Shown here: positions 9,789-55,452 of the stretch, in pieces | Layout: the number at the start of each line of letters is the position of its first letter | Position numbering within the stretch: position 1 is the stretch's first letter | Virus record (IMG/VR): IMGVR_UViG_3300042507_006854 | Coordinates: 1-64,000 of that record | DNA length: 64,000 bases | Source of the DNA: a virus | Direction: 5' to 3' (one strand) | The notes under the pieces: generated by a model | Database searches by the model: none | What the model saw: only the letters and a program-made list of their open reading frames with translations | What the model was told of the DNA's origin: nothing | Made by a program: the position numbers and the translations under genes

Positions 9789-10265
9789 ATGTGGGAGAAT
9801 GTAAAAAATATTGCTAGCAATGCAGCGGCTTTTTTAAGCTCGAATAAGGTTCCGCCAAATACGCCAATCGAATTACAAAATTCGATGAGGAATGAAAACC
9901 ATTTTAAATCTAAAAAATTTTTCTTAGCATTTTCTTCCTTTATTGGTCTATTGGGCTTTTATTTATTATCTGTTGCAATTCTTTTTTTATTACCAAGCAA
10001 GAATGAATTAATTGCAGGCTACGTAACTATTTTTACAAAAACAGTCGAGATTGTCGCCATAATTGTCGCGTCTTATATTGGTGTCCAAGCGGCTATTGAT
10101 TTTAAATACGGTAGTACTTCTAATACAAACTTGGACTCTGTATTAACATCGGAGCAACGCGAAGAAAAAATCATCGAAGAACAAACAGTTGTTTACGCAG
10201 AAAAATATAAAAATGATCCATCATACGCACCAATTGATTGGGTGTTTAATCAAGAACAGGAATAA
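9789..10265 (+). CDS. Holin-like membrane protein
   Basis: KSKKFF followed by two TM helices (...YIGVQAAIDF); directly upstream of the endolysin. Confidence 0.55.
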   Translation: MWENVKNIASNAAAFLSSNKVPPNTPIELQNSMRNENHFKSKKFFLAFSSFIGLLGFYLLSVAILFLLPSKNELIAGYVTIFTKTVEIVAIIVASYIGVQAAIDFKYGSTSNTNLDSVLTSEQREEKIIEEQTVVYAEKYKNDPSYAPIDWVFNQEQE

Positions 10266-10266
10266 T

Positions 10267-10962
10267 ATGAAAGTTTTACAAAAAGGAGATGTGAGTGAAG
10301 AAGTAAAACAATGGCAATTGTTTCTTCAAAGTGCTGGTTATAAAATTCCCTATGTTGATGGAGCTTTTGGACCGGCAACTGAACGAGAAACTGTAAAATT
10401 TCAAGTTAAAAATGGGTTAAAAGCGGATGGAGTTGTTGGACCAAAAACTTGGAAATTTGTAACGAATATTTCTAAGAATACCCCGCTTTCTCAAAAATGG
10501 CCAAAACAAAATTACACAAGTATGGTTAATTTTTATGGACCAGTTGGTGAAAATCAAACTAAATTAGATGTTCCATATAAATTAAAATTAGCATGGGCGC
10601 CATCGACAACCTTAACACGTATTACTTGCCATGAGAAAGTTGCACAATCTCTTTATAAAATATTTGAAAGTACTTTAAAAACATATGGAGAGAAAGAAAT
10701 TTCTCGTTTAAAATTAGATATGTTTGGTGGATGTTTAAATGTTCGTCGTATGCGCGGGGGGTCCGCATGGTCAATACACAGCTGGGGAGCAGCAATAGAT
10801 CTTGATCCAGACAATAATCAATTAAAATGGCCAAAACCAAAAGCAATATTAAGTCGTGCTGAATATAATGAATTTTGGAAAATAGTTGAATCCGAGGGAT
10901 GGACGAGTTTAGGTAAGGAACGCAATTTTGATTGGATGCATTTTCAAGCTGCTTATTTATAA
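10267..10962 (+). CDS. Endolysin: peptidoglycan-binding domain plus M15-family Zn peptidase
   Basis: PG_binding_1 motifs (VDGAFGPAT, ADGVVGPKTW) and M15 motifs (SIHSWGAAIDL, DWMHFQ). Start placed at ATG 10267. Confidence 0.9.
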   Translation: MKVLQKGDVSEEVKQWQLFLQSAGYKIPYVDGAFGPATERETVKFQVKNGLKADGVVGPKTWKFVTNISKNTPLSQKWPKQNYTSMVNFYGPVGENQTKLDVPYKLKLAWAPSTTLTRITCHEKVAQSLYKIFESTLKTYGEKEISRLKLDMFGGCLNVRRMRGGSAWSIHSWGAAIDLDPDNNQLKWPKPKAILSRAEYNEFWKIVESEGWTSLGKERNFDWMHFQAAYL

Positions 10963-15916: not shown

Positions 15917-16494
15917 TGGGTAAAAGTTTAAATAAAAAAGCTTTACAATTAGAAATCCTGAGTAATAAAGCAATTAAACAATTTATTAGAGATCGGGTTT
16001 CTGAGGAGATAGAAGTGCAAAAAAATATTTTTTTAAAAGAATTTGAATCTCACCCAGTTACGCAAGAAATTGAGGGTGAAGAAAATGCCTCTAATATCTC
16101 TGGCACTCTTGGTGGTTATGGTAATTTATATTCTTTTTTAGGTTTTTCTAGGGGTTCCAATCCAACCTTACCTGTAAAAGTTTTAATTCAAAAAATAACT
16201 TTAAACAAAAACCCAACAGTTAAAAATAATGGTTACCAATTTAAGCTTACCGTTCCTTCGAAAGAGGAATTTGCTTCTGTTACTAAATTGCCATGGGAAG
16301 GTGGAAGAAGTTGGTTATTTGATATCGAAAAAGTTATTTCTGGTTTGGGGGCCTATTTATATGGAAAATTTTCAGGCTCAAGATCTGGAGGGGGTATACA
16401 AAGCAATTATAATTATTCTGGTAAAGTTTTTAAACCGACTAAATATTTTACTGGGATTTATAATAAATTTTTATTTAGAATAGGAGCGAAGTAA
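15916..16494 (+). CDS. Putative neck/tail completion protein
   Basis: Synteny; basic protein ending in a 'FKPTKYF' motif as in neck-1/gp10-like proteins. Confidence 0.45.
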   Translation: MGKSLNKKALQLEILSNKAIKQFIRDRVSEEIEVQKNIFLKEFESHPVTQEIEGEENASNISGTLGGYGNLYSFLGFSRGSNPTLPVKVLIQKITLNKNPTVKNNGYQFKLTVPSKEEFASVTKLPWEGGRSWLFDIEKVISGLGAYLYGKFSGSRSGGGIQSNYNYSGKVFKPTKYFTGIYNKFLFRIGAK

Positions 16495-17789
16495 TGAAAG
16501 CTAGTTATATAACAAATTTAATGTCAAGTTTTTATTTATGGTTGGATCATGAAATATTATATCATGGAGAAGCTTTTACAAATTATAGTGGAAAACTTTA
16601 TCCGTCTACAGACCCGAATTTCGCTAAAAACTCTTTATATAGCTCGCCGTTTCGTCAATGGGTATACGACCAGAGTATTCCTAATGCAAATATTCCTTCT
16701 GGTATTTTTATTAATAATAATTATATTTCTCGTGGAACTTATGGCTTAAATATTGACTTTAACAAAGGTCGTGCTATATTTTTAAATAGTGGTATAAATT
16801 CCAATAATGTAGCGGCAAACTATAGTTTAAAAGAATACAATATTTATTATACTGATGAACGTGAAGAAAAATTACTTTTTGAAAAAGCTTATAATTTAAC
16901 ACCGAAAGTAACTCAAATTATAAGTGGTTTGGGATATTTAGATACCCCTTATCCTTGTATCTTTATTAAACATCGTATTGGTGAAAACTTACCTTTTGCT
17001 TTCGGTGGCGAAGATTCTACAAAGACAATGATTCGTTGCATTGCTCTTGCTGCTAATAGTTTTTCTTTAGACGGGTTAATTTCAATATTAAGTGATAGCG
17101 CTCGTAAGGTTTTTCCAGTATTAACGCCAGATGATTTTCCATTTAACTATTTTGGAGATCTTAAAGCGGGGCAGAGTTTTAATTATATTAATTTATGTAA
17201 AGAACAATTGCCTTCTAATTTTGTTTATATAGATAAAGTAACCGTATCGAAACTAGACGAAATTGACAACGCAAAGATCAATAAAAAATGCGTTGCAGCT
17301 TTAATTGATTTTGAATTATCTCATGTTCGATCGCCTAGAATATCTAACAATAGTTCTTCGTCGAGTTCTTCGTCGAGTTCTTCGTCAAGTTCTTCGTCAA
17401 GTTCTTCGTCAAGTTCTTCGTCAAGTTCTTCGTCAAGTTCTTCGTCAAGTTCTTCGTCAAGTTCTTCGTCGAGTTCTTCGTCATCTAGCGTTGAAATTCC
17501 AGGCTCTTTATCTAGTATTTTAATTCAAAATGGTGGATGGAATATTTTAAATGGCACTTTTGATTATAGTGCTGAATTGAATAGCAAGCCTTATTATAAT
17601 AAAAATGGTGATGGTAATTTATTTATTGTTTGGTTTGACAACCAATGGGGTATATACGATTTTAATCAGAACCCTATAGATCCAATTTATTTTAGTACAA
17701 GTAATACCTTATATCCATGGAACGCACAAAATTGGTCTGCTATTAACAATATTTATTTACCAATACCAACTATTAATCAAATTATTTAA
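16494..17789 (+). CDS. Putative tail terminator with poly-Ser linker and appended C-terminal domain
   Basis: Directly upstream of the tail tube; 'PYPCIFI' motif; about 46 Ser; extra ~100-aa Trp/Asn-rich domain. Confidence 0.55.
   Translation: MKASYITNLMSSFYLWLDHEILYHGEAFTNYSGKLYPSTDPNFAKNSLYSSPFRQWVYDQSIPNANIPSGIFINNNYISRGTYGLNIDFNKGRAIFLNSGINSNNVAANYSLKEYNIYYTDEREEKLLFEKAYNLTPKVTQIISGLGYLDTPYPCIFIKHRIGENLPFAFGGEDSTKTMIRCIALAANSFSLDGLISILSDSARKVFPVLTPDDFPFNYFGDLKAGQSFNYINLCKEQLPSNFVYIDKVTVSKLDEIDNAKINKKCVAALIDFELSHVRSPRISNNSSSSSSSSSSSSSSSSSSSSSSSSSSSSSSSSSSSSSSSSSSSSSSVEIPGSLSSILIQNGGWNILNGTFDYSAELNSKPYYNKNGDGNLFIVWFDNQWGIYDFNQNPIDPIYFSTSNTLYPWNAQNWSAINNIYLPIPTINQII
17352..17483 (+). repeat. 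Tandem repeat, 11 x 12 bp (AGTTCTTCGTCR), encoding poly-Ser
   Basis: Read directly from the sequence. Confidence 0.95.
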
Positions 17790-17841
17790 TATAATAAAAT
17801 TAAGTAGTGTCTTGAGTAAGAATATACTGTAATATATTAAT

Positions 17842-18930
17842 ATGAGCAGAAATAGAATCATTTATAACGTGTTAGCTCTTTATGCTAGCCAAGTAAATCC
17901 AAGTGGTCAGCAAACTGGTGCTGGTGCCGTTAAACAATTGACTCGCGTACAGTCTTTTGATGAGGATTTTTCAAGAAATTTAACTGATGTTAACCAATTC
18001 GGTAACTTGGCCGCTATTGACCGTATTGAAGTTGAAGCCCCAACTGTTAACGCAAGCCTTTCATACTACATTACAGATGGTAGTAACGAAAAATATTTAG
18101 GTCTCACCGTAACCCCAAACGGGGGAGCAATTAACGTTTCTTGTATTTCTGGGATTTTAAATAAATCAACGGATGAAAAAAATTATTATCTTTTAATTGC
18201 CGACGAAGGTAATGACGCGAACGGTTATAATGGTAACAGTGGTATTATTGGTGTCGGTAACGGATTTATTACTTCATATAGTGTTAATGCTGCCGTAGGT
18301 GAAATTCCAACAGCCACTGTTGACATGGAAGCTTTAAATATTCGTATTTATTCCAATGTTACTGGCGCTTCACAAGTACCAGCTGTAAACCCTGTTAATG
18401 GTTTACCAATTACTACCGCTCAATTTAGATTGCCAGTTGGTCAAACAAATGATAACGCTACTCAAGTAACAGCTTTACAACCTGGAGACATCGAATTTAC
18501 TCCAGTTGGAACAGTTGGTTACGATGAAGAAAACTTAAAAGTTCAAGACTTTACTCTTTCATTTGACTTAGCTCGTACTCCATTACAAAAACTCGGATCG
18601 AAATTCGCATTCTCTCGTGAAATTGACTTCCCAGTAACTGCTACCCTTGAAATCAATGCCGAAGTTGGGGATCTTAAAGATGGTAACTTGGCTGATCTTC
18701 TTTGCGCTACTGGAACGCATGATTTCACAATTACATTGAAGAAACCTGATTGCAGTGGTAATGGCCAAGCATCATTAAGATATCTATTCAAGGGTGCTAA
18801 AATTATTAGCCAAAACTTCAGTTCAGCAATCGGAGATAATGCTTCAATGAGCGCTACTTATGAAGTTCAACTTGGTGGACCACAAGATCTTGCAAAAGGT
18901 ATCTTTATTTCTGGTTCATACGCTGCCTAA
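17842..18930 (+). CDS. Major tail (tube) protein
   Basis: 362 aa, beta-rich, highly expressed codon bias, own promoter-like motif (CTGTAA at 17827) and terminator. Upstream of chaperones and TMP. Confidence 0.75.
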   Translation: MSRNRIIYNVLALYASQVNPSGQQTGAGAVKQLTRVQSFDEDFSRNLTDVNQFGNLAAIDRIEVEAPTVNASLSYYITDGSNEKYLGLTVTPNGGAINVSCISGILNKSTDEKNYYLLIADEGNDANGYNGNSGIIGVGNGFITSYSVNAAVGEIPTATVDMEALNIRIYSNVTGASQVPAVNPVNGLPITTAQFRLPVGQTNDNATQVTALQPGDIEFTPVGTVGYDEENLKVQDFTLSFDLARTPLQKLGSKFAFSREIDFPVTATLEINAEVGDLKDGNLADLLCATGTHDFTITLKKPDCSGNGQASLRYLFKGAKIISQNFSSAIGDNASMSATYEVQLGGPQDLAKGIFISGSYAA

Positions 18931-18946
18931 TTAGCATTTAATAATT

Positions 18947-18980
18947 AAAAAAATGGGCACTTCTGGTGCCCATTTTTTTT
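18947..18980 (+). terminator. Rho-independent (possibly bidirectional) terminator
   Basis: A-tract, ATGGGCAC-TTCTG-GTGCCCAT hairpin, T-tract. Confidence 0.9.
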
Positions 18981-18985
18981 ATTTA

Positions 18986-19009
18986 GTGTAAGTTATCTTA
19001 GGAACAAGG
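18986..19009 (+). promoter_or_regulatory. GTGTAA element plus AGGAACAAGG leader
   Basis: Both recurrent motifs present, immediately after a terminator. Confidence 0.6.
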
Positions 19010-19024
19010 TTAGTAAAGGACAGT

Positions 19025-19249
19025 ATGGATTTAAACTTAAACGAATTTGTTGAGGGCTTAATTTACAGAGATGTAAAAAAACTTTATTTATCTTTTCTAT
19101 ACATATTAGAAGACCTCCGTGATCAAGAAAATATTTCTGAAGAAAATTTTCAAAAATTAAGAAAACGTGTTCTCGATTATGGAAATAATTGTTATAGAAA
19201 TATAGAAGAACAATTAAATAGTTTTGATTTTAACTTGACTAAAAAATAA
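19025..19249 (+). CDS. Hypothetical helical protein
   Basis: ORF with an AAAGGA ribosome-binding-site-like sequence. Confidence 0.55.
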   Translation: MDLNLNEFVEGLIYRDVKKLYLSFLYILEDLRDQENISEENFQKLRKRVLDYGNNCYRNIEEQLNSFDFNLTKK

Positions 19250-19257
19250 AATATATT

Positions 19258-20091
19258 ATGGATAAACAGAATAAAAATTGGATGTACAAATTTGAAGCCG
19301 TAGAGAGTATCTACAAGGAAGATAAAGAAATTGATAAGAAGACACGCTCATTTATTATTTCTAAGCCTAATCGTAGATTAAGAGAAGACGGAGAGCTTTT
19401 TTATGCTAGTGAAACATCAAGGTTTGCCAAAGCTGGCGTTTTACCAAAGGCGGCTTGGAATACAATTTTATCTAATGGTGGTGGAAGTATTAGCGAGAAG
19501 GAAAGAGAAGTTTATGGCGGTTTATTAATTAAATTTAGAGACGCATCTTTTGAATTACAATCTATTTTAATTAAAACCGAAAACGAAAGAACAAATCTTG
19601 AGAAAAAACGTGCTGATGAAATTTTAGTAGAATTAGAAGAAATTAGAAAAGATATTCAGTCATTTGAAGCTTCGCAAATAGCTATTTTTGAAAATACAGC
19701 TGAGGCCAAAGCAAGAAATAGAACCATTTTATGGTGGGTATTAAATCTCGCTTATGAAGATATAAATGGTGACATTAGGCCTCTTTTCGAAGGACAGTCT
19801 TTTAATGATAAGTTAGATAAATATGATTTCTTAGAAGAAAGTCAAGAAAATACATTTCTACTTTCCGTTATTAGAAGGTTTACCTATTTAATTACATTAT
19901 GGTTTTTGGGTAGAATCGAAACAGACGCTGATTTTGAAGACTTTGATAAATCTTTTATGAAAGATGGAACTGAAGACGAAGAATCTACGGAAATTGAATC
20001 TTCAAGTTCCTCATCTGTTGAGGACAAACCTTCTGAACCTGTAAGCTCTGATTCGTCTTCTAGTTCTTCGGAAGTTCAGGCTCCTCAGTAA
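19258..20091 (+). CDS. Putative tail assembly chaperone 1
   Basis: Between tail tube and TMP; helical/acidic, with a Ser-rich tail. Confidence 0.5.
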   Translation: MDKQNKNWMYKFEAVESIYKEDKEIDKKTRSFIISKPNRRLREDGELFYASETSRFAKAGVLPKAAWNTILSNGGGSISEKEREVYGGLLIKFRDASFELQSILIKTENERTNLEKKRADEILVELEEIRKDIQSFEASQIAIFENTAEAKARNRTILWWVLNLAYEDINGDIRPLFEGQSFNDKLDKYDFLEESQENTFLLSVIRRFTYLITLWFLGRIETDADFEDFDKSFMKDGTEDEESTEIESSSSSSVEDKPSEPVSSDSSSSSSEVQAPQ

Positions 20092-20094
20092 TGT

Positions 20095-21117
20095 GTGGAT
20101 AAAACAACAGAGTTTGGAAGAATATATAGTGAAATAGCAAATGGCTATTCTAAACAAAATGTAAATAATAATGTTATTTATTTTAAACACCCTAGCTTAA
20201 CTGAGCATTTTAGTATTTATTCAAATTATGAATTGCTTTTGAAAGAAGCTAGAAATAAAGGCGTTCCCACGGAAGAAGAAAAAATTAAAGAAGCTATTGA
20301 GGGCGGCTGGTGGACCAAAGAAAAAGAAATGGAGATTTCTATTCTTAGAAAGACGATCACTAATCTTACTAAAACAAAAAATAAATTGGCATTGCCATCT
20401 CAAAAAACAGCTATAGAAAATCAACTTAGAAGCAGAGAAGCTATCCTATTAACTTTTTTAAAAGAACGGCAGGAGATTACCGCCTATACGGCTGAAGATT
20501 ACACTTCTCAAAGATTTATAGATGAGACAATACTATTATTAACATATAAAAATACTAATTTAACAGAACTATATTTTACCCTAGAAGATTATTACAATTT
20601 AAATGACAGGTACATAGAAAATATTAAAAACCTATATAATCAATACTCTATAGTTTTTTCACAACAAAATATCAAATGTATTGCTGCTTGTGGATTTTTT
20701 CAAAATCTTGTTTATTTAAATGACGATGCTTATAGCTTTTGGGGCAAGCCAACAGTCAAATGTACTAAATATCAAGTTGATGTTTTAGTATATGGTAAAA
20801 TGTATAAAAATTTTATTAAAAATTCCGCAGAAAATGGGAATGCCGTGCAGGAGGAAATCTTAAATGATCCTGAAAAATTAGTTGATTTTGTAGACAGTGC
20901 TACACAAGGTTCTAGCAAATTAAAAGGCCCAAATAAAAAATCAAAAGATAGTCGAAATATGGTAAGCAGTCTTGTTGGGGCGACACCAGATGATTTAAAA
21001 AAGATGGGCGTTAAAACTGAAAAACTGGCTGGGGGTAAAAGTTTACTGGAAATGGCTAAAGAATCTGGTGGTACTTTAGAAAAACATCAGTATTTAAAGG
21101 CGCGAGAAAGTAGTTAA
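20095..21117 (+). CDS. Putative tail assembly chaperone 2
   Basis: Directly upstream of TMP; 'FWGKP...TKYQ' motif typical of pre-TMP chaperones. Confidence 0.5.
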   Translation: MDKTTEFGRIYSEIANGYSKQNVNNNVIYFKHPSLTEHFSIYSNYELLLKEARNKGVPTEEEKIKEAIEGGWWTKEKEMEISILRKTITNLTKTKNKLALPSQKTAIENQLRSREAILLTFLKERQEITAYTAEDYTSQRFIDETILLLTYKNTNLTELYFTLEDYYNLNDRYIENIKNLYNQYSIVFSQQNIKCIAACGFFQNLVYLNDDAYSFWGKPTVKCTKYQVDVLVYGKMYKNFIKNSAENGNAVQEEILNDPEKLVDFVDSATQGSSKLKGPNKKSKDSRNMVSSLVGATPDDLKKMGVKTEKLAGGKSLLEMAKESGGTLEKHQYLKARESS

Positions 21118-21157: not shown

Positions 21158-24100
21158 ATGGCTGCTATTAATATTGATGTAGGCGCAAATACAAGACGAG
21201 CTGAAAGAGATATTCAGAAACTCGTAAGCAAGTCTTATAATATAAATTTAAAAACAAAAGGCGACCAACCTCTTGGGCGTATTACTGGTAAAGTTAATGA
21301 ATTTACTAAATCGTTAGACGCTTCTAATGCTCGCGTTATTGCTTTCGGTGCTAGCGCAGGAATTATTTTTGGAGTACAAAGAGCTTTTGAAGCATTAGCA
21401 ACTTCCGTTATAGACACTCAAAAATCATTGGCGGATATTAATGTTATTTTAAATGTTTCAAGTAGTCAATTACAAAAATTTGGTGGAGAATTATTTGGAA
21501 TAGCAAAGAATACTGGACAATCTTTTCAAGAAGTCGCCAAAGCTGCTACAGAATTTTCTAGACAAGGCCTGGGAATTGCCGAAACGTTAAAAAGAACTAG
21601 TGAAGCTTTAATCTTATCAAGATTAAGTGGGTTAGATGCTGCAAAAAGTGTTGAAGCGTTAACTGCTGCCGTTAACTCATTTGCAAGTCAAGCTGTAACA
21701 GCAACAGAAATTGTTAATAAATTTGCAAATGTTGACGCGGCTTTCGCTGTCAGTTCTGCGGACCTTGCAGATGCTATTTCCCGTGTCGGTAGTAGTGCGG
21801 CCCAATCTGGAGTAAATTTAGATGAACTTATCGCAATTGTAACTGCCGCGCAACAAACAACTGCTCGTGGCGGCGCAGTAATTGGTAACTCTTTTAAAAC
21901 AATTTTTACAAGGCTACAAAGAACAAAAACCATTGATTTATTAGAAGGTCTTGGCGTTAATACAAAAGATTCGTCTGGTCAAATTAAAAGCACAATTAAT
22001 TTATTAACGGATCTTGCCAAAGTATATGACCAGCTTGGAACTTTGCAACAAGCAGAAGTAGCTGAAAAAGTTGGTGGTGTATTCCAAATTAACATCTTAA
22101 AAGCTGCTTTGGCAGATTTAGGAAAAGAATTTTCTGTTTATAATAGTGCTTTGCAAGTTGCCGGTTCAAGTACCGATCAAGCAATTCGGCGTAATGAAGA
22201 ACTTAATAAAACTTACGCAGCACAATTAAATGCTATACAGGAAAATGCTAAGCAATTGGGCGCTAGCGTGGGTGATAGATTATTTGGCCCAGCTTTTAAT
22301 AGGGTAGTTGGAAATGCTAATGATATTCTTGGTACTGTTAATGCTGGTGACGGTAATGGGATCGGTGCAACGCTAGGAAAAGGAATCCTAGATGGTTTGG
22401 GTCAAGTTATTGCTGGTCCAGGTTTGGCATTATTGGGTGGTATTTTTATAAAGCTTTTTGCTGACTTAAGTAAATTTATAGGTGGAAGTTTAAAAGAACT
22501 TTTAAATCTAAATAACGCTTCAAAACAGCAACAAGCATTGCAACAAAGTATCTCGGCAATTTTACAAAAAAATCCTGATTTATTTAAATTAATGCAACAA
22601 GGTACCGTTGGTCTTAACAAGGGTGCTGAAATTTTATTAGCTAGTTTACGCGCGCAAACGGTTGAGTTACAAAAACAAGAAGCTATTGCTGCGAAAATTG
22701 CTGCTCAATTTTTAAGATCCGGTAATGTAACTATGGTTGGAGGTATTCCGACGGCTACCACAGGAAAACCACCAAAAACAAAATCTGGAGGATTTATTCC
22801 AAATTTTGCCAATGTATCGCAAAAACAAGTAATTGGCGAAACTGCTGGCGCGCTTAAAGGTGGGTACGAACCTGGCAAAATAGTTCGAATTAAAGGAATG
22901 GTGGCTAATGATGCCGAAGAATTTATAAAATATCAGGGAGTTTCAAAGCCTGAAATTAGACCGCCAGCAGATAGTAAAGCCGGAAAAGATCACCGTAAAA
23001 AATTAAAAAATAAATTAGGATTTATTCCTGGAGAAGATAAAGCTACTGGATTTATTCCAAATTTTGCAGAGGATAAAAATATTTTAAAATATCAAAAAAG
23101 TTTTGCTGCTGGAAAAGTTTTTGATAATGCTATTGCTTTATCTTTAGGATTAAAAAAAGCATATGTGGAAGATCGTGATGTTATTGATTTTGCTCCAAAC
23201 TTATTAGCGCCGCCAACAATTGATAATAAGGTTAAAACTCTTCTGGGTATTAACCCTAAAACTTTATATGGTGATGCAAAATTAAGCGGATCTGATGATA
23301 ATATAGCTAGTTATATATCTAAAATATTAAGATTACCAGGAACTCAAATACGTAATAACACAGTTATTCCCGCTAGTAAGGGTGGTTCAATATTAATTCC
23401 TGGAAGTGGCGATAACGATTCGTTAAAGAATCTTCGCGCTGGAGTGGGAACAATTTTAAAGAAAAACCCTAGCGTTGCACAAACCTCAGTATTTCAAAAC
23501 TCTGGATTAGAAAAAGGTGAGTCCTTATTTTTACCAAATGTTCTAATTGATTCTGTAAAAAATATAACAAGACAGACAGTTTTTGGTAATGTGGCTGGTG
23601 GAGGAAAAAATTTCCAAGATTTTAATGTAAGAAAATCTGCAGCTGAAAATATTGCTAGTAGATTTGGTTTTAAAAAAGCTAAAACTTTTGCTTCTGGTTT
23701 TATTCCAAATTTTGCAAAAGCATCTAAAGAAGAATCTGTAAACTTAGGCGATATAAGTTCAAACCCATCGTATAGATCAAAATTACTTTCTGTTATTATT
23801 CCCCAACCATCAAAAAGTTTATTAAAATTCCCAGCTGAAGCAAAATACGGAGATACATTATATACTACCACCGGACTCCCAGTATCAGGACCAAACCCAG
23901 ACATAACAAAAAGATTATCACAACAAAATATTCCAAATTTACATAAAAATATTGGTAAAGTTGTTCTTGATCAAGCTAATGTTTTTGGTCAATCATTAGG
24001 CGCAACAAAATTTATGAGTAGCGTTTCTGAATTACCCAATTTGGGTGGGGTCAATAGCGCTGCCGGAATTGCTTTTGAAGGTGGGGTACTGAACGCCCTT

Positions 24101-27100
24101 GGAAAATCAATTGGATCCAAAAATGCAAGAGTTGATTTTTCATCTGCGTCTCTAAATTCACAAATTAAAAAAATATTTAATAATGCCCCTGGTTCGTATG
24201 AAGCTAAAAATAGACCATCGAGACCACTGATTAATGATGGTTTTTTAAAATTTTTAAGTCGTGCAAAGCCAGGGTCCGTAAAATCACCAAGGAGCGGAGG
24301 ATTTAAGGAGGCGCAGGCATTAAGAGCACAGGCGTTAAAGAATTTTGAATTAGAGGGTCGTACATATAAAAGAGGCCCTCAATTAAACAATGAAATTGAG
24401 AAAGAAATAGCTAAAATTAGAAGTAGTAGGGGTATGGCTGCTGGTTTTATTCCGGATTTTGAAGAAATGAAACAAAGCGCAATGAGCGCCGAAAGAAAAT
24501 TCGGTAAAGGTGCTAAAATGGATGAATATAAAGGATTGTTATATGTTCGCCAACCAGGACAATCTTCTAATTTCAAAACGATGATGAAAGAAGATCATCC
24601 AGAAGGTTTTGCAGCAGCCGTTGCTAATTCTGCTAAGTCTCAAGGAATTGCTAGTCAAGGATTTATTCCAAACTTTGCAATTAACGAAAGCACCGCCCCA
24701 GCAGATTTAACTGCATCAATTTCTGCTGTCGTTACACAATTAGGCGGGCTAGCATTTATGCTATCTTTTGCAAAAGGTCAATATCAAGAGTCTTTAAAAC
24801 AATTGACTTCTGCAAATGTGGCCGCTGCAAAAGCTCAAGCTCAAAATGTTTTAGCTTTAAAAAAATTGCAAGCAGGAGGCGGAGTTAGAAATGAGCCTGG
24901 TGGATTCCTGAATGCACAACAATCGATTAAAAGAGCTGAGGCGGGGACATTTGCACAGAAATCTGGAGCCTTGCTTGGTTCAAATGCCCTAGCCCTTACT
25001 TTTCTTGGCCCTATTATAGCAGAAACAATTAAAAATGCGATTGGTCAACAAACAAAAGAGGCGAGGGTTCAGAGTTCTGTAGCAAGTGGATTTGGTCAAG
25101 CAGCTACTTTTGCTGGTTTTGGCGCATTGATGACGCCAATGAATCCTTTAGTTGGTGGGGGCGTTGGTCTCGCTGCTGGCGCAATGTTAGGATTAGTTGA
25201 TGTTATTAAACAGGCAAATACAAATATCCCAGAACTATCAGCAGCTGCGAAAAAAGCTTCTGAAGATCTTACTAGAATAAATGACGCTGGTCAGAAAGTA
25301 CAAACGCAATTTGAGCAAGTTTCACAATTAAGAGAATCTGGAGAACAAGAAAAAGCTGGAAAATTAGAAGCAGATTTACTGAAATTGATAGGAAAAGAAT
25401 TTAGAGATCGTCCAGAATTAGCTTCTCAAGCTGCTAGCGCTGTAATTAATCAAGATTTTAAATCTTTAACAGCGGCTTTAGAGAAAAATACTCAAGCAGT
25501 ATTAAAACAAAAAATAACAGAAGATCGTAACTTATTAATAGGAGAATTTATAGAGGGGGCTGGGGGTAAACAAGCTGGAAAACAATTTGTAGATATTGTT
25601 CCTATCGAAAGTTTTGATGAACAAGCTTTAAATAAATTGATAGAATTTTCTAATCAAGCCTCTCAAACGAAACCAGATGTAGTAAGAAAAGTTACTACGG
25701 GAGAAGCGTTTGGAAATCCATTAAATCAAAAAGCTTTTGAAAATACAAAGATAATAAGCGAAAACCTTTTAAATTTTCTAGCCTCAACTGAAAAATTAAA
25801 TCCAGGAGATATTGATAAATTACGAGCAGCTTTTGCAGATGATCCGGCTCTGGCTATTGAAGCATTAGCTGCGATTAAAAACCCCGCATTAGATACTTTA
25901 AAAGCTGTTGAGGCTACCGCTCGAAATAGCGCTAAAGGTAATAAAATTATTGCAGCTATTACAGACGCTTTATCAAAGGCGCAATCAATTTATGCACAAT
26001 TTGCTATTAATGCACAAGCTGCGGTTGATTTGCAACTAAGTAGTCAAAGAAGTATAAGAGAAGCTTATAAAAATATAGCAGAATCACAAGGTCAAAGAGA
26101 CGTAAGTCTTTTAACCGCCGTTGGAAATCCGCAAGCGGCTAAAAATGTTCGTATTAATACTGAAATTAAAAAATTTAATACTGAATTTGCTAATGCAGTA
26201 AATAGTTCTTTTGATAGCATAATAAGTAATGTCGCAAGCGCGGTAGTTACAAGCGGCCAAAAAACCTTGGCTGGATTTTCTGATATTGGCTCTGGAGACG
26301 GCACCGAAGGAAGAGCAATTCAAAACATTGACGCTGCGACAACTTTTGCGGAAGCTTTTCAAAGACAGTTTAATATTAATAATTTTAAAGACTTAATAGG
26401 AATTGGTGGCGAAAATTTTGATATACAAGATTTTGAAGGATTTAATGTACAAAGCGTCTTAAATGAAATATCTAGTAAATTAGGCCTTGATCAAGGAGAC
26501 CCCGAAGCTAAAGCATTGCTAGAAAGAATTAGAGAAAGTTTAAACGAAGCTAATACTAAATTATTAGACCAAAAAGCAATATTAGCTCAACAGCTTACGG
26601 TTTTAGCAAACCAAGAATATGCAGCAAATTTTCAAGAATTGATGACGGCTATCACCAAAAGTTTTGGTGGAATGGAGTCTTTTAGAAATTTTAATAATCA
26701 ATTTTCAATGACTGATGAATTGAATAGGGCTATTGGTAGCTTATTTGGATTACGTAATGCTTCTGGACCAAAAACTGATATTGAAACTGCTAGAGCGTTA
26801 TCTTCTATAGTTGAGGAGTTAAGCAAGTTGGCCGGAAGTAATATTGTAACAAATAGTCAAGGAGGACTTCGTCCAGAATTGGCTCCGGTTATTGATGCAA
26901 TTGTTAAGGGCCGGGCTTTAGATATTGAAAAAACCATTAATAGCGTTCTGACAGGACCGTTAAGTAAAACTGGTCAAGGCGGTGCTCTACAAACAGCATT
27001 TTTAAATGAATTAATAGATAACCTAGGAATAAGCAGAACAAAAGAAGATGGCACATTAAAAACCCAACAAGAGCTGGTAAGAGAGGTTTCTTTAAAAAAT

Positions 27101-30100
27101 GCTGAGATGCAAACAAAAGCTGAATTGGGTGTTGGAGAAATTAACAAACAAGTATTAGGCCAAGCTTTCAATATGTTGCCAGATAGCTTGAAAAAAGCTT
27201 TCAAAGAGCAGGGGATGGGAGCTTTTAATAGTATTGAGCAAATTGCTCTTGCTCAAGACTTGGCTCGAAATCAGTTATTGCAACAAATATTAGATACTCT
27301 TCGTGCTGGAACGGGTGAAAAGTATGGAGATTTTTCAGCTAGCAGAACTGGAACATTTAATCAAGATGCGGCTGGAGGAGGTGGCTTGAATCCTACGGGT
27401 GTTGGAAGAGCAGAAGACATCAATAATTACACTCCACAAGCCGTAGTCGAGCAAGCTAAGACTCCAGGAACCGATTCTTTTTCGAAAGCAGTTAGTGATA
27501 GAGTTTCGACCTTTAATGATGTTAATTTTACTGGGGAAGATGGATCTCCACGAACACTAAGTAAATGGTTTAATGAGCAAGCTCCTTTAGATTTAACTAC
27601 CGGCTTAACAACAAAATTATCAGATTTAAATGGAGTTATTGGTGCTGTTATAAATGATGAAATGATTCCAGATAATAGTTCTGAAAATCCAATGATGGTT
27701 CCAAAAGATCCTTTGGGATTAGGAATTAATGATGCTATAGGTACGACCGCTGCCGAAATTGCAGGAACAGATCCAGAATTACAAAAAGCTGCTGATTTGA
27801 TTAGAAATACCGATAGTAGGTATTCAGATAATGTTCCTTTGACTATAGAAGATATTAATGATAAGTATACTTCTTCATCATCTTCATCTTCTTCCGATGC
27901 TTATCAATCACAACTAGATAAAGATTACGAAGAATGGAAAGCAAAAAATAAAGCAAAAGGAGAAGTTCCTAAAGGTTTTAAAGATGAAATATCTTCAATT
28001 CGTCGTGGGGTGGGGGGTGCTAAACCATGGCATTCTCCTTATCTAACCGAAATTAATGGGGAACCAGCTTGGGTTCATACTGGGGAAACAGTTACAAAAA
28101 TGGGCCCAAATGGTGAAATGGGGGTTTTAACTCCGGATATGAAAAAAGCTTTAAATTTTGCTGAGGGTTCCATACCAGATGACTCAGCTGTCGCAGCATT
28201 TTTATCTCAATTCAGAAAAAAACGTAATTTTGGAGATGCCGGATACAAAAAATTTAGAGATTGGTTCCGTGCCAATGACGCTGCCGCACCAAAAAATTTA
28301 GGAGGAGCTCCAAGAACAAAAGGCTTTGGATTACAAAATTTTGCTAGGTATGGTAATGATTTATTTAGTGGAGGAACTGCGGGGGCCGGTGGCTATTTTG
28401 ATCCAGCAGATAAGTTTAATGCTTTTAGACCTCCGGTAATACCACCACCGATACCAGGAGCATCTTCTTTAGATAATACTATTAGACAAGATAGACTTGA
28501 TAAACAATTTCGTTTTTCTGAAAAGGACTTTAGAGTAAGAAGGCATGAATTTACACATGCTATGCAAAATGATACGGCTGGATCTAAAGCTGGACAAATG
28601 TTTAAAGGAAAAGCAGCAAAATTTTTTGGAGTCGGAAGAACTGATCCTCAAAAATTTGGAAAATGGACCCAACTAATTGAAGAAACTCAAGCAAGAATTG
28701 TCGAAAAAAGAAGTTTGACTGGCGGTGTTCTTGATATGATAAAGGATGCAGATTTTTATGCAGATTATTATAAAAAGAATCCAGAAGTTTCTAAATCATT
28801 TAAAATGCTTTCTCCTTTAAAACGTTTGGGCGATATACCATATGATCCTGTTTTACAAAAAATTACAAGCCCATTAAATTTAATGAGTCGTAATATTATG
28901 TCAGGTAATATTTCAGTATCTGAAGCTGGAAAAGGGATGGTCGAACAATTCAAAAATATTCCCCAGTTGTTACAAAATCCCGAAATGCTTAAACAATTGG
29001 GGGGTGGTATTTTAAAAGGCGGGGCTGTTGGTATGGGTACCCAATATGCTGGAGAAAAACTTATTCCAAAATTTGATGGTAAAAATAAGGATGGTGAGAT
29101 GTCTTATTTGGAAGAAGTTGCCAATGAATTAAGATCTTTTGGTATTGCAACCGGGTCTGGAGCAGCGGCTGGAGCAGCTGGAACCGGTGGCGCGGGAACA
29201 ATTTTAGGAGCTATTGCTGGAGGAACTACTGATGTTTTAGGTAAATTATGGAGATTAGGTTCTTCTAGCGTCGAACTAGCAAAACTTACATATGACGAGT
29301 ACGGAAGAGAAGATAAGATTAACGCCCAACAATCGGAATTACAAAATAGATCTAAAAAATTAGCAGAACAAGCTAGATTAAAACGTCAAAAATCAGAAAC
29401 GCAAAGAATGGAAAGTATAGGCATGTTAAAACAAAAAGGCCCATCCGTATCAATGCCAATGATGCCATCCACTTTAGATTTTGCAAATGCCGCAACTAGA
29501 AATAAACAACAAACACAATTTAATAAACAAATCACTACCGCACAAACAAAACCAACTAATCCATATAGACTAATCGGCGGAAAAGGAAATGCTCCGGCAA
29601 CTCAAATAGATACAAGAACTGGAACGGGAACTTTAGTGCCTCGTGCAGAAGCTGTTAATCCAAGTCGCGGAATTTCTACATCAACAAGTTATGCCCAAGA
29701 TCCAGAAGTTCAAAAAGCTATTAAGTCTGGTGACATTAGAGCTATTGAACAGGCAACAGTAAAAGCTAGAGAGAGGGCTGGTAAGTCATTCGAAACTCCT
29801 GGTAGTGATTTTGCTAGACAATATAAATTTAAAGAAGATTTAGTAACCGCTTCTCAGATTGGTGAAATTGGTGGTATCGTCACTGGAGGAACACAGGCTG
29901 AAGTTGATGATTATTATAAGAAAAAAGCCAAAGAATTTGGAATGTCAGATCGTTTTATTACAGATTATATTGAACCAAGAGAAAGAAGAAAAGAAGAGCA
30001 AAAACTAAACCCACCAAAAAGAAATTTTACTGAAAAAGGCGCTAGAAGTAGATTAAAAGATATATTGGATGGTTATGATGCTTTAATGCGTGGAAATAGA

Positions 30101-31261
30101 AGCATGGCTCAAACACAAGCATATCAAGCTAAAAAACAAGAATTACAAAGGTTATTTAATTCCGGTAATTTTGAAGGAATATATAATACATATGATTCTT
30201 TACCAAAGAGTGACCAGCCACGAGGGTTTAGAACTCAAGATGGAAGTTTTATAGTAGCTCCTCCGACTCCAACCCCAGAACCAGCGTATAGAAATGCTGA
30301 AGAAGCTCGTTTAGCGGGGAGAAACGTTTTGCGACCAGGGGCAGTTGGAGCGATGACAAGAGTAGAGCGCGATGATGGAACTTTAAAAACACTTTTTAAT
30401 GCTTCCTCTGTAAACCCAGAAATTCCAAAAGCAATGGCGGCAGCAAATGAAGCTGCAACAATGGCATCTATTAAACAAACTTTAGCTATTAGCGATTTTA
30501 ATAGTGGTAGGGGCCCCGATCCAAGAAAAATGGATTTTACTCCCAAAGTGTTACCCCCGGTTTTAGATTATAGTGGTAGTGTTTCACAGCCTGGATTAGC
30601 AAACTATAACCGTACCATGAATCTTTCGCCTATTAATCCTGAAGGTATAGATTTATATAAAAACCTCAAGGGAACTGAAAGACCAGATGGGTCTGTAAGC
30701 ACCGGAATTCCTAAATCATGGGAAACTATAAATAAAATAGAAGAAGAAAAGAAAAGGGCAAAAAATTATGCACAGGGATTAGTAAATAGATCCTTCTTGG
30801 CTGAATTAGCTAATGGTGGGGTTCCGGTTCAAGATAGTATTCCTGGAATCGGCCCTGTAGTTATCGATAAAAATACAGAATATAGCGCAGCTAATGCTGT
30901 AGCAAGAAAAGGTTTATCTCAAGGAATGTACGAATCTCGTAAAATGCAGAATATTTCTGCACAAGGTTTTTCTCCAAACTTTGCAGTTAAAAAAGCTGAT
31001 ACTCAACCATCTCCAAACAACTTTAGTATAAAATTGGGCGATATGGTAATTAATAGTGCTTCGGCTCAAAATAATCCCGAGCTATATGGTAAAGATTTTG
31101 GTTCCGAATTACAATCTAGAATTCCAGATGTTATTGAACAAATTAGATCTGACATGGATAAAAAATATGGTAGGGTTGCAGACTTAGTTCGTCAAAATGA
31201 AAATATGTTTGTAAACAAGGTTCCGCCTAAGTCTCGTGGAAACGCGGCCTTAAGAACATAA
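21158..31261 (+). CDS. Tape measure protein (TP901-type core) with embedded accessory domains
   Basis: N-terminal TP901-like core (EFSRQG, GNSFKTIFTRL), Ala/Gly-rich helical and hydrophobic segments, 3367 aa. Contains repeated GFIPNFA motifs and HEFTH. Confidence 0.9.
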   Translation: MAAINIDVGANTRRAERDIQKLVSKSYNINLKTKGDQPLGRITGKVNEFTKSLDASNARVIAFGASAGIIFGVQRAFEALATSVIDTQKSLADINVILNVSSSQLQKFGGELFGIAKNTGQSFQEVAKAATEFSRQGLGIAETLKRTSEALILSRLSGLDAAKSVEALTAAVNSFASQAVTATEIVNKFANVDAAFAVSSADLADAISRVGSSAAQSGVNLDELIAIVTAAQQTTARGGAVIGNSFKTIFTRLQRTKTIDLLEGLGVNTKDSSGQIKSTINLLTDLAKVYDQLGTLQQAEVAEKVGGVFQINILKAALADLGKEFSVYNSALQVAGSSTDQAIRRNEELNKTYAAQLNAIQENAKQLGASVGDRLFGPAFNRVVGNANDILGTVNAGDGNGIGATLGKGILDGLGQVIAGPGLALLGGIFIKLFADLSKFIGGSLKELLNLNNASKQQQALQQSISAILQKNPDLFKLMQQGTVGLNKGAEILLASLRAQTVELQKQEAIAAKIAAQFLRSGNVTMVGGIPTATTGKPPKTKSGGFIPNFANVSQKQVIGETAGALKGGYEPGKIVRIKGMVANDAEEFIKYQGVSKPEIRPPADSKAGKDHRKKLKNKLGFIPGEDKATGFIPNFAEDKNILKYQKSFAAGKVFDNAIALSLGLKKAYVEDRDVIDFAPNLLAPPTIDNKVKTLLGINPKTLYGDAKLSGSDDNIASYISKILRLPGTQIRNNTVIPASKGGSILIPGSGDNDSLKNLRAGVGTILKKNPSVAQTSVFQNSGLEKGESLFLPNVLIDSVKNITRQTVFGNVAGGGKNFQDFNVRKSAAENIASRFGFKKAKTFASGFIPNFAKASKEESVNLGDISSNPSYRSKLLSVIIPQPSKSLLKFPAEAKYGDTLYTTTGLPVSGPNPDITKRLSQQNIPNLHKNIGKVVLDQANVFGQSLGATKFMSSVSELPNLGGVNSAAGIAFEGGVLNALGKSIGSKNARVDFSSASLNSQIKKIFNNAPGSYEAKNRPSRPLINDGFLKFLSRAKPGSVKSPRSGGFKEAQALRAQALKNFELEGRTYKRGPQLNNEIEKEIAKIRSSRGMAAGFIPDFEEMKQSAMSAERKFGKGAKMDEYKGLLYVRQPGQSSNFKTMMKEDHPEGFAAAVANSAKSQGIASQGFIPNFAINESTAPADLTASISAVVTQLGGLAFMLSFAKGQYQESLKQLTSANVAAAKAQAQNVLALKKLQAGGGVRNEPGGFLNAQQSIKRAEAGTFAQKSGALLGSNALALTFLGPIIAETIKNAIGQQTKEARVQSSVASGFGQAATFAGFGALMTPMNPLVGGGVGLAAGAMLGLVDVIKQANTNIPELSAAAKKASEDLTRINDAGQKVQTQFEQVSQLRESGEQEKAGKLEADLLKLIGKEFRDRPELASQAASAVINQDFKSLTAALEKNTQAVLKQKITEDRNLLIGEFIEGAGGKQAGKQFVDIVPIESFDEQALNKLIEFSNQASQTKPDVVRKVTTGEAFGNPLNQKAFENTKIISENLLNFLASTEKLNPGDIDKLRAAFADDPALAIEALAAIKNPALDTLKAVEATARNSAKGNKIIAAITDALSKAQSIYAQFAINAQAAVDLQLSSQRSIREAYKNIAESQGQRDVSLLTAVGNPQAAKNVRINTEIKKFNTEFANAVNSSFDSIISNVASAVVTSGQKTLAGFSDIGSGDGTEGRAIQNIDAATTFAEAFQRQFNINNFKDLIGIGGENFDIQDFEGFNVQSVLNEISSKLGLDQGDPEAKALLERIRESLNEANTKLLDQKAILAQQLTVLANQEYAANFQELMTAITKSFGGMESFRNFNNQFSMTDELNRAIGSLFGLRNASGPKTDIETARALSSIVEELSKLAGSNIVTNSQGGLRPELAPVIDAIVKGRALDIEKTINSVLTGPLSKTGQGGALQTAFLNELIDNLGISRTKEDGTLKTQQELVREVSLKNAEMQTKAELGVGEINKQVLGQAFNMLPDSLKKAFKEQGMGAFNSIEQIALAQDLARNQLLQQILDTLRAGTGEKYGDFSASRTGTFNQDAAGGGGLNPTGVGRAEDINNYTPQAVVEQAKTPGTDSFSKAVSDRVSTFNDVNFTGEDGSPRTLSKWFNEQAPLDLTTGLTTKLSDLNGVIGAVINDEMIPDNSSENPMMVPKDPLGLGINDAIGTTAAEIAGTDPELQKAADLIRNTDSRYSDNVPLTIEDINDKYTSSSSSSSSDAYQSQLDKDYEEWKAKNKAKGEVPKGFKDEISSIRRGVGGAKPWHSPYLTEINGEPAWVHTGETVTKMGPNGEMGVLTPDMKKALNFAEGSIPDDSAVAAFLSQFRKKRNFGDAGYKKFRDWFRANDAAAPKNLGGAPRTKGFGLQNFARYGNDLFSGGTAGAGGYFDPADKFNAFRPPVIPPPIPGASSLDNTIRQDRLDKQFRFSEKDFRVRRHEFTHAMQNDTAGSKAGQMFKGKAAKFFGVGRTDPQKFGKWTQLIEETQARIVEKRSLTGGVLDMIKDADFYADYYKKNPEVSKSFKMLSPLKRLGDIPYDPVLQKITSPLNLMSRNIMSGNISVSEAGKGMVEQFKNIPQLLQNPEMLKQLGGGILKGGAVGMGTQYAGEKLIPKFDGKNKDGEMSYLEEVANELRSFGIATGSGAAAGAAGTGGAGTILGAIAGGTTDVLGKLWRLGSSSVELAKLTYDEYGREDKINAQQSELQNRSKKLAEQARLKRQKSETQRMESIGMLKQKGPSVSMPMMPSTLDFANAATRNKQQTQFNKQITTAQTKPTNPYRLIGGKGNAPATQIDTRTGTGTLVPRAEAVNPSRGISTSTSYAQDPEVQKAIKSGDIRAIEQATVKARERAGKSFETPGSDFARQYKFKEDLVTASQIGEIGGIVTGGTQAEVDDYYKKKAKEFGMSDRFITDYIEPRERRKEEQKLNPPKRNFTEKGARSRLKDILDGYDALMRGNRSMAQTQAYQAKKQELQRLFNSGNFEGIYNTYDSLPKSDQPRGFRTQDGSFIVAPPTPTPEPAYRNAEEARLAGRNVLRPGAVGAMTRVERDDGTLKTLFNASSVNPEIPKAMAAANEAATMASIKQTLAISDFNSGRGPDPRKMDFTPKVLPPVLDYSGSVSQPGLANYNRTMNLSPINPEGIDLYKNLKGTERPDGSVSTGIPKSWETINKIEEEKKRAKNYAQGLVNRSFLAELANGGVPVQDSIPGIGPVVIDKNTEYSAANAVARKGLSQGMYESRKMQNISAQGFSPNFAVKKADTQPSPNNFSIKLGDMVINSASAQNNPELYGKDFGSELQSRIPDVIEQIRSDMDKKYGRVADLVRQNENMFVNKVPPKSRGNAALRT

Positions 31262-54800: not shown

Positions 54801-55452
54801 ATTATTCGCTATTAGAATTACTGGGGCATTACCTCCTGACAATCCTAACCTTCCAGGTTTTAACGAGCCAGCAGAAATATTTTTACAGGCGAGTGTTCCT
54901 GGTAGTCCACTTTACAATCCTTCCTTAACTTTATTAACAATACATCCAGGAGAAAGTGGTACGGGAAATGGGGCTCCTTGTGGCGGACCAGGACACGTTT
55001 GTAATAGAGCTTTATTTGACATTATAATTGGAACAGGTCTTGATCCAGTAACTTCTGGGGTTGTCGGGGTTACTGTACTAAATGCTAATTTAAATAATAA
55101 TGGCGGCCCAACAGATCCAGGTCCTGGTCCGGCACCATATAATGGTCAATATGATAGATATAGCTCTGGAATTATTACAGAGCAAATGGCTCAACAAATT
55201 TTTGGCGCTTCATATAATGACGGTTTAGATAAATCTTATTTTGTAGAAATTAGAACTGGCGTGGGAAATACTAATCCTCACAATGGTATTACGAATGTAA
55301 GAATTAGAGATTGCTCTGGCGCTTTAGTTTATAATTGTTGTTTATCTATCGGTGGTGGTTCAACTGTCCCTCCTCCATTACCAACGCCTTCTACGACTTC
55401 ATCGGCAGCTTTTGACGAAATTCTATCCTCTTTAATAGATGATGTGATATAA
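51838..55452 (+). CDS. Multidomain protein: trypsin-like serine protease, PKD-like, BspA-type LRR, Cys-rich and GHxCNR domains
   Basis: Catalytic triad motifs LTNAHV, IDAALI and PGDSGS; IDWGNG; LTSLPTGFF/LNSIPSGLF/FTNVPSNLF repeats; two poly-Ser linkers. Confidence 0.75.
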   Translation: MNYDNLQKYIENLYFNTPETIHGISLGYKIKDGVTTDKLCISFFVPKKLEAKDLENQYVIPKSIVIDGTEYLTDVVETKMPIAIGCFNWQASPLPSAIVPHRSRQRPLKGGIVISNYTDLYNPLKNSIVKGTLGLICVDKDTDSFVGLTNAHVIIKDPFIPSNQDVKGFLSNILPDKKIVQYTEPNINTTNDNIGNIRKFYPLSKDASNYIDAALISIKEFVGNTSTPILSQTESWRQLGLNYNNPMEFASTQEIDSLLNTPREIYSAGRTTGPKGSNCPLQITNLLSSYSIIYEEQGTRVSVPFSNCITFKYQDNSLWSTAPGDSGSVLIANFNGAWKIIGLVFAGDEGGSFGVACRIDTVANRLNIEPWLNGNKNYIQNYKTVLKTFDEGVSLMSNNNSNLWNVTQTISGDKYWYAGLVADSSSSSSGPATWDIQIQMTQPSQKFFIDIRGGTNPNFTIDWGNGSIQTYNSLGTKDSTYPLTGNYIVKINGSFSDNGNIAINSNSSPNLGTPVSAAVKSTSIMPFISGLKSVNGLFFQSTSLTSLPTGFFDFNPQITDFSSAFSFCSSLNSIPSGLFKNNTNAINFGSSDTYGTFRSTAFTNVPSNLFYNNTLATSFVDCFNDVPLTTTSYSNLLINLASNAAQRPNNVVFDARSSRYNCNAQAAKQVLLAKNWSVNDLGLEGTCTSSSSSSSSSSSSSSNNPNLNTSCLPCCPSFTGSWAGGINGLGILRNCTSELYVCPTGCSIKNLNTNFTTTAGDPNLIFISTLDGSAYKRAYIQGIDSGASFTNYTNVHNTLVLWDGEQDGTTFQDGDTVRFSGTLGSLDNRIIKGIDYKVAVIPEKCAPPSNYLNSQALAIQCEYNPITDPSCFDICSGGLINYTVEALYLHTYDPGKFPESISICSGTEVTGTNSIRILTPYSPSNFIPQNAPDFSGIAILPSLQGSPINVEIQTILKPGGAPLIDISNDNINFGQNTTITIPANQLSGLFAIRITGALPPDNPNLPGFNEPAEIFLQASVPGSPLYNPSLTLLTIHPGESGTGNGAPCGGPGHVCNRALFDIIIGTGLDPVTSGVVGVTVLNANLNNNGGPTDPGPGPAPYNGQYDRYSSGIITEQMAQQIFGASYNDGLDKSYFVEIRTGVGNTNPHNGITNVRIRDCSGALVYNCCLSIGGGSTVPPPLPTPSTTSSAAFDEILSSLIDDVI
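53902..53943 (+). repeat. Poly-Ser (14) from a duplicated 18-bp unit TCTTCCTCGTCCTCGTCT
   Basis: Read directly from the sequence. Confidence 0.85.

Follow-up and report, generated by a model that had tools for sequence, protein, structure and literature searches.

Tape measure proteins (TMPs) are known as rulers, sometimes carrying one lytic domain. The TMP of phage T5, pb2, is cut after R1127 in the sequence NSFVPR/AEGG, at a position flanked by a hydrophobic stretch on one side and a peptidase motif on the other, resulting in pb2* and pb2C, and the 92 amino acids of pb2C stay in the tail (Linares et al. 2023, PMC10038345). The lambda protein gpH is converted to gpH* and gpHC with the loss of a C-terminal piece of ~14 kDa, and both the cut site and the catalyst are stated to be open (PMC12617516). 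Here, we analyzed a TMP, P0001, that is encoded in a stretch of 64,000 nucleotides, termed the window in the following, which represents the first 64 kb of the IMG/VR virus record IMGVR_UViG_3300042507_006854 (146,949 bp, estimated completeness 78%). A short peptide, in most cases GFIPNFA, recurs in this protein and separates folded modules that are exchanged among its relatives.

In both T5 and lambda, the TMP is cut after assembly and the C-terminal piece is kept in the tail; the piece following the last motif of P0001 comprises 91 amino acids, compared with 92 in T5. In addition, the T5 site, which is located beside a hydrophobic stretch, shares F-[VI]-P and an Ala with the sequence F[IV]PNF-A of the P0001 family, that is, three to four residues. 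T5 and lambda show one cut each, whereas P0001 harbors six to eight sites that fence folded modules, and cleavage at these sites is predicted by analogy.

Polyvalent proteins of phages and conjugative elements are another point of comparison. Their hub domain, a zincin-like peptidase with an HExxH motif, has been proposed to carry out the processing of the protein, and TMPs are not mentioned a single time in the respective study (Iyer et al. 2017, PMC5512222). Polyvalent proteins resemble P0001 in being giant, composed of many domains and thought to enter the host together with the DNA, and P0001 also contains a stretch with HExxH and a Glu. In contrast, the several recognizable enzymatic or conflict domains of polyvalent proteins are not found in P0001, the modules of which match nothing known; no common boundary peptide is described for polyvalent proteins, and the zincin-like stretch is rare in the P0001 family. 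Small functional domains inserted in a TMP are also a feature of mycobacteriophages: Piuri and Hatfull are said to have reported in 2006 that these TMPs carry embedded peptidoglycan-hydrolase motifs that are dispensable for the ruler function. Those inserts differ in being recognized hydrolase motifs, for which neither a shared fencing peptide nor an exchange of cassettes is known. We know of no description of a universal boundary peptide combined with cassette exchange among matured TMPs, polyvalent proteins or mycobacteriophage TMPs.

The motif GF[IS]P[ND]F[AE] is present six times in P0001, at exactly the positions given in the original prediction for this DNA (Table 1). This is far beyond chance, since only 7e-5 matches are expected from the composition of the protein and none of 20,000 shuffled sequences contained more than one match. 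When all six frames of the complete 147-kb record were scanned, the motif was confined to the TMP open reading frame (ORF). The related motifs N[FY]A[EQ]G at 28154 and 30764, which had likewise been noticed, were also recovered (0.015 expected by chance). We interpret NFAEG and NYAQG as decayed copies, because both edge small modules and the homologue P0046 carries a full GFIPNFAEP at the position of NFAEG. NYAQG or NYARG is conserved ~165 amino acids before the C-terminus in relatives, and a half-site, GFIPGED, is located at nt 23018 in the C-terminal linker of module A.

The first five copies fence an array of four folded modules, which is preceded by the N-terminal core and followed by three hydrophobic segments; n modules are thus accompanied by n+1 copies of the motif. 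Within this array, two small modules (A and D) of ~65-80 amino acids bracket two paralogous modules (B and C) of ~210-240 amino acids. In an AlphaFold2 model of residues 530-1185, based on 50 homologues, all five array motifs are found in segments with a predicted local distance difference test score (pLDDT) <50, three to six residues off the module ends. According to this model, the motif is in effect the linker between modules. The motifs had been predicted to fall at the edges of globular inserts, and this agrees with both the linker position of the five array copies and the small modules bordered by NFAEG and NYAQG.

A search with residues 500-1250 retrieved 146 giant TMPs of 1900-3650 amino acids, all of metagenomic origin. 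Motif statistics were derived from 121 proteins (P0001 and the 120 listed homologues of the 146 found) using a relaxed motif, of which 629 copies were counted, 2 to 10 in each protein. In the consensus [KG][KAF]-A-x-G-[FY]-[IV]-P-N-F-[AS], the Gly and Pro are invariant, and Asn (98%) and Phe (95%) nearly so. Conservation is limited to positions -5 to +6, save for a basic upstream flank. The variant GYIPNFA accounts for 118 of the 629 copies, and the variants (F/Y and A/S) cluster within proteins (permutation p<0.001), orthologous copies being non-independent. Screening viral contigs with a protein pattern confirmed at least 193 relatives among 600 stretches examined, and a DNA-pattern scan detected at least 120 stretches with the motif; the DNA pattern GGNTTYATHCCNAAYTTYGC is a usable probe for family members. 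The same N-terminal core was present in 51 of the 54 pattern-found ORFs with enough upstream sequence, and therefore the motif evidently belongs to one TMP lineage of uncultured phages. The array has neither a match in GenBank phages nor a cultured relative, the N-terminal core shows at most 28% identity to TMPs of cultured phages (Bacillus, Flavobacterium, and others), and a literature search for the motif string returned no relevant paper.

At the DNA level, 397 coding copies of the motif comprise 235 distinct 21-mers, which make use of all Gly, Pro, and Ala codons and of both Ser codon families, at loci with a GC content of 28-54%. Because of this number of distinct 21-mers, a DNA-level repeat was rejected as the cause of conservation. 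Since the codons vary freely across the copies, selection acts on the peptide, a short linear motif, and not on the DNA.

Cutting the homologues at the motifs and clustering the resulting pieces revealed a common plan: an N-terminal core of ~550 amino acids is followed by a small module, none or up to three variable modules of ~200 amino acids, module C, which is nearly universal, additional modules in some cases, another small module, and a long remainder. In some homologues, this remainder is followed by one more small module together with a motif and a terminal piece of ~118 amino acids. Every module junction carries a motif, while the number and kind of modules differ between relatives. 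Module C of P0001 is 84% identical to its counterpart in P0005, whereas the flanking modules share only 10-20%, and the break falls at the motifs. The same breaks in identity at motifs were found in four further protein pairs. These comparisons indicate that members of the family acquire, lose, duplicate, and swap modules at the motif. The original prediction had proposed to ask in homologues if the motif stays conserved while the segments between its copies vary in number and identity; this is the pattern observed, and fixed collinear segments were not seen.

Profile comparisons showed that the clusters of small modules are related to each other. Module B has a core of ~73 columns in common with module C and a C-terminal part in common with the small modules (hhalign of cluster 1 versus cluster 5, 97% over 73 columns; cluster 2 versus cluster 5, 95.8%). 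The same approach identified the small modules E and F near the decayed copies, in the distal third of the protein, and the corresponding hhalign controls were negative. Homology of the small modules to the C-termini of lambda gpH or T5 pb2 was also considered and found no support by hhalign; the short likeness between VHTGETV (P0001) and VHRGEFV (lambda) is all that was seen.

None of the modules matched Pfam, PHROGs, PDB sequences, or known folds. A single-domain AlphaFold2 model of module C reached a mean pLDDT of 81.5. Foldseek against the PDB returned nothing at E<=0.001 for this model, VIA-align gave Z<=5 with matches confined to the C-terminal helical hairpin, and the comparison with the ESM Atlas gave a TM of 0.35. 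With the 656-amino-acid model of residues 530-1185, Foldseek and VIA-align matched the helical hairpin only. An Atlas feature search for the modules yielded scores <=0.84. In an exhaustive HMMER search, module C was found in 37 clusters, essentially all of which are giant TMP-like proteins with the match at residues ~640-1350; the exceptions are one 447-amino-acid protein, one match starting at residue 4, and one low-confidence match in several stretches. Because the relatives of module C are essentially confined to giant TMPs, the array resembles a set of domains that duplicated and diverged within TMPs rather than imported cargo.

Four residues of module C, E974, D993, K1017, and K1031, show no or almost no variation (the first three in 43-51 sequences) and occur in the order E...D...(D/E)xK, and a similar string, VIDF...GDAK, is present in module B. 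From these residues, a nucleic-acid or metal-dependent activity of module C is possible. The ordered conserved residues of module C and the similar string of module B fit the PD-(D/E)xK-like domains that had been suggested separately, but searches with the module C model found no structural match to the alpha-beta-beta-beta-alpha-beta core of this fold. The broader proposal that this TMP serves as an effector delivery cassette fared likewise in part: the motif is a real boundary signal and the segments vary, but recognizable effectors were not encountered and the modules have no known match, which leaves the conserved polar residues as the sole indication of an effector role in this sub-family.

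P0001 is a giant TMP of the TP901 type. PF10145 (PhageMin_Tail) is detected in it with 93.5 bits (Pfam gathering cut-off 33.2; residues 116-307) and PHROG TMP families match with a best E of 2e-51. The gene is the longest of the tail module and belongs to a structural cluster on one strand, with conserved neighbors on both sides. PF10145 is the sole Pfam family in P0001, its homologues carry almost only PF10145, and beyond residue ~500 no match was found in Pfam, PHROGs, or PDB sequences. The N-terminal core contains ~110 invariant columns among 43 sequences that are otherwise ~20-40% identical. Such conservation is unusual for a TMP, and a GASAG string lies inside the hydrophobic helix of this core. 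Hydrophobic Gly-rich segments flank the array on both sides, at residues 409-444 before and 1184-1354 after it. Over the latter region, the family profile weakly matches Hemolysin BL L1 (7nmq, E 6.7e-5), a component of a pore-forming toxin; this match may be compositional, yet it fits a membrane-inserting hairpin. Downstream of the hydrophobic block, the family profile matches long coiled coils, for example MCP and ZorA.

Table 1. Features of the TMP gene and of its upstream neighbors (positions in the window; aa, amino acids; nt, nucleotides).
Feature	Position	Strand	Evidence and remarks
Three conserved upstream genes (362, 277, 340 aa)	17842..21117	+	Same order upstream of the TMP gene in related loci (81-95 homologues)
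TMP gene (protein P0001)	21158..31261	+	3367 aa; ORF list and translation; PF10145; PHROG TMP families
N-terminal core, aa 1-530	21158..22747	+	PF10145 at aa 116-307; hydrophobic Gly-rich segment aa 409-444 (nt 22382-22489)
Motif copy 1, GFIPNFA, aa 545-551	22790..22810	+	Pattern match; pLDDT <50
Small module A, aa 552-630	22811..23047	+	Helix, small sheet, helix; block pLDDT 75-92 (confident aa ~551-628); cluster 0 (116 members)
Motif copy 2, GFIPNFA, aa 631-637	23048..23068	+	Pattern match; pLDDT <50
Module B, aa 638-846, variable cassette	23069..23695	+	Cluster 5; partial paralogue of module C and small modules; model poor
Motif copy 3, GFIPNFA, aa 847-853	23696..23716	+	Pattern match; pLDDT <50
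Module C, aa 854-1095, near-universal cassette	23717..24442	+	Cluster 1; ~90 pLDDT in model of aa 530-1185 (confident aa ~859-1090)
Motif copy 4, GFIPDFE, aa 1096-1102	24443..24463	+	Pattern match; slightly decayed
Small module D, aa 1103-1167	24464..24658	+	Paralogue of module A; cluster 0; pLDDT ~60-70
Motif copy 5, GFIPNFA, aa 1168-1174	24659..24679	+	Pattern match; end of array
Three hydrophobic Gly/Ala-rich segments, aa 1184-1354	24707..25219	+	Directly 3' of array; hydropathy scan; kept in family consensus
Long Ala/Gln/Glu-rich ruler region, aa ~1355-2100, presumably helical	25220..27457	+	Composition; coiled-coil-type PDB matches of family profile
Small module E, aa ~2278-2332	27989..28168	+	Ends in NFAEG (nt 28154-28168); hhalign 90.6% to cluster 3
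Zincin-like stretch	28475..28717	+	Sequence pattern; HEFTH (nt 28544-28558), conserved ETQ ~45 aa downstream
NYAQG (nt 30764-30778), then small module F, aa ~3208-3269	30764..30964	+	hhalign 96.8% to cluster 0
Motif copy 6, GFSPNFA, aa 3270-3276	30965..30985	+	FTPNFA in P0002 and FVPNFA in P0045 at equivalent place
C-terminal 91-aa piece after last motif	30986..31258	+	~20/121 homologues with motif 87-130 aa from end

For the function of the motif, maturation cleavage is our leading reading, although we hold it tentatively and put it somewhat short of an even chance. It leads because n modules are fenced by n+1 copies, the copies lie in short exposed linkers, about nine residues are conserved in a polyprotein-like manner, and there is precedent in two TMPs. 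According to this proposal, the TMP would be synthesized as one uncut chain and incorporated in this form into the tail, as its role as a ruler requires. The motifs would then be recognized as maturation cleavage sites, as in T5 pb2 (FVPR/AEGG) and lambda gpH, after which the tail lumen would contain a series of individual fragments that exit sequentially during ejection. Modules close to the N-terminus would thereby come to lie beside the membrane-inserting hydrophobic segments. A far-reaching version of this scheme appears doubtful to us, in which every AxGF[IV]PNF[AS] site would be cut after assembly, either by an activity conserved in the lineage (e.g., of the N-terminal core) or through a chemical reaction of the invariant Asn that depends on assembly, and the tail would inject a lineage-variable set of free proteins, among them a nuclease-like module, before the DNA or together with it.

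Several observations weigh against cleavage. No conserved protease was identified among the embedded HExxH and trypsin-like candidates. The likeness to the T5 site consists of F-[VI]-P plus Ala alone, the invariant Gly, Pro, and Asn would suit a docking peptide equally well, and decay of individual motif copies is tolerated. Of 654 copies, not one is located within 25 amino acids of an ORF end or 40 amino acids of an ORF start, and therefore natural gene splits provide no evidence that the pieces can function separately. (An apparent gene split at a motif in P0046 was discarded, because the assembly contains a run of N at this place.) A cultured relative was not found, and hhalign of the module profiles against the single T5 and lambda sequences, a weak test, gave probabilities <1%.

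Two candidate processing enzymes were considered. The first is the zincin-like stretch of P0001 itself, which has no Pfam match. Its HExxH and ETQ are kept in P0002 and P0008, the sole homologues (2/120) of the region spanning residues 2400-2625, and with so few carriers an embedded zincin-like domain was rejected as general processing enzyme, which again counts against cleavage. P0001 contains no cysteine among its 3367 residues and seven histidines, two of which belong to HEFTH. The second candidate, a trypsin-like protein of 1204 amino acids encoded by the ORF at 51838-55452, shows only a sub-threshold match to NAL1_N, a trypsin-like family. A search with its N-terminal 350 amino acids was negative in five related virus records, of which three are complete, but this search was weak, having no positive control; the resulting rejection of this candidate, and its bearing on cleavage, are equally weak.

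If the motif is not cut, it could be bound. Docking to some partner of phage or host origin is, taken as a whole, a possibility to be reckoned with, although we would not bet on it. In one form of it, which we consider unlikely, the motif would stay uncut and dock to a conserved partner encoded by the phage, such as the N-terminal core, the tube-like 362-amino-acid protein, or the 277- and 340-amino-acid proteins encoded upstream, and docking would hold or order the modules during assembly or in the lumen. The motif resembles a typical short linear motif in that its core of aromatic residues, Pro, and Asn lies in a disordered linker and is preceded by a basic flank, and 2 to 10 copies per protein with tolerated decay are consistent with binding, as is the failure to find a conserved protease among the candidates examined. 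The motif also co-occurs with the N-terminal core (51/54 ORFs) and the three conserved upstream genes, but common descent explains this as well, and AlphaFold2 leaves the motif undocked on the adjacent modules in cis. Moreover, binding of chaperones is expected along the helical ruler, as for lambda G/GT, whereas the copies gather around the folded inserts.

Alternatively, the motif might recruit a host periplasmic chaperone, for example a peptidyl-prolyl isomerase of the SurA type, to the ejected TMP and thereby keep the modules soluble or aid their refolding at the membrane. Cumby and colleagues reportedly found in 2015 that the TMP of HK97 needs the periplasmic chaperone FkpA, which counts for this explanation, and the location of the array between hydrophobic segments and the labels of related contigs in metagenome-assembled genomes (MAGs), all of them diderm taxa, would fit. 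The SurA P1 domain binds the peptide WEYIPNV with a Kd of 1-14 uM (PDB 2PV1), and the SurA consensus is Ar-X-Ar-X-Pro (PMC11401910). WEYIPNV shares YIPN with the GYIPNFA variant (118/629 copies). However, the consensus is only half met: the position -2 from Pro is F/Y in 99%, but position -4 has no common aromatic residue (Phe ~5%). Seven residues that are invariant across loci of 28-54% GC are also stricter than promiscuous binding requires, and the motif is restricted to one TMP lineage, which leaves host chaperone recruitment very unlikely in our view. We are just as skeptical of a passive universal linker, neither cut nor bound, that would merely permit in-frame joining and independent folding, with cassette exchange as its main consequence. 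While recombination breakpoints at the motifs and the same peptide at every junction are what such a linker would produce, it does not need Gly, Pro, Asn, and Phe to be invariant over 629 copies, and the DNA copies are too varied for long homology (235 distinct 21-mers), so that the peptide drives the conservation. A small share of the probability falls to none of these readings.

The three genes directly upstream of the TMP gene have no Pfam or PHROG match and are candidate tube or assembly-chaperone genes as well as candidate partners of the motif. The 277- and 340-amino-acid ORFs (19258-21117) are in the same frame, separated by a single stop; read-through between them is probably a coincidence, because the equivalent ORFs of the related locus L204 lie in different frames. 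A frameshift arrangement typical of tail chaperones was not seen in these two ORFs. The 362-amino-acid gene, which is conserved upstream of all related TMPs, follows a gene for a 431-amino-acid protein (within 16494-18930) with weak Atlas leads to Gp37/tail-terminator clusters (score 0.78). Genes downstream of the TMP gene are also shared in L204. Most neighbors scanned belong to no named family, exceptions being weak sub-threshold matches and the ORF at 10189-10962, whose product of 257 amino acids is a likely endolysin (PG_binding_1, E 1e-12; Peptidase_M15_4, E 6e-7). No sheath gene was recognized, which suggests a non-contractile tail.

Contigs of the family have a GC content of 28-54% and are up to 194 kb long; the relative G001 (178,478 bp), which has direct terminal repeats, is classified as complete. 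Within genome collections, only MAGs labeled Proteobacteria, Flavobacteriales, Neomarinimicrobiota, and Halobacteriovorax contain the family.

In this large TMP family, one short peptide fences exchangeable folded modules. If maturation cleavage is true, phage tails can deliver variable sets of proteins, and where and how TMPs like lambda gpH are cut would become testable with a defined motif; cutting at all sites would constitute the first sequence-defined rule for TMP cleavage. If docking is true instead, the motif would represent a new assembly or host-interaction peptide. Cut or docked alike, it is a practical marker of module boundaries in giant TMPs.

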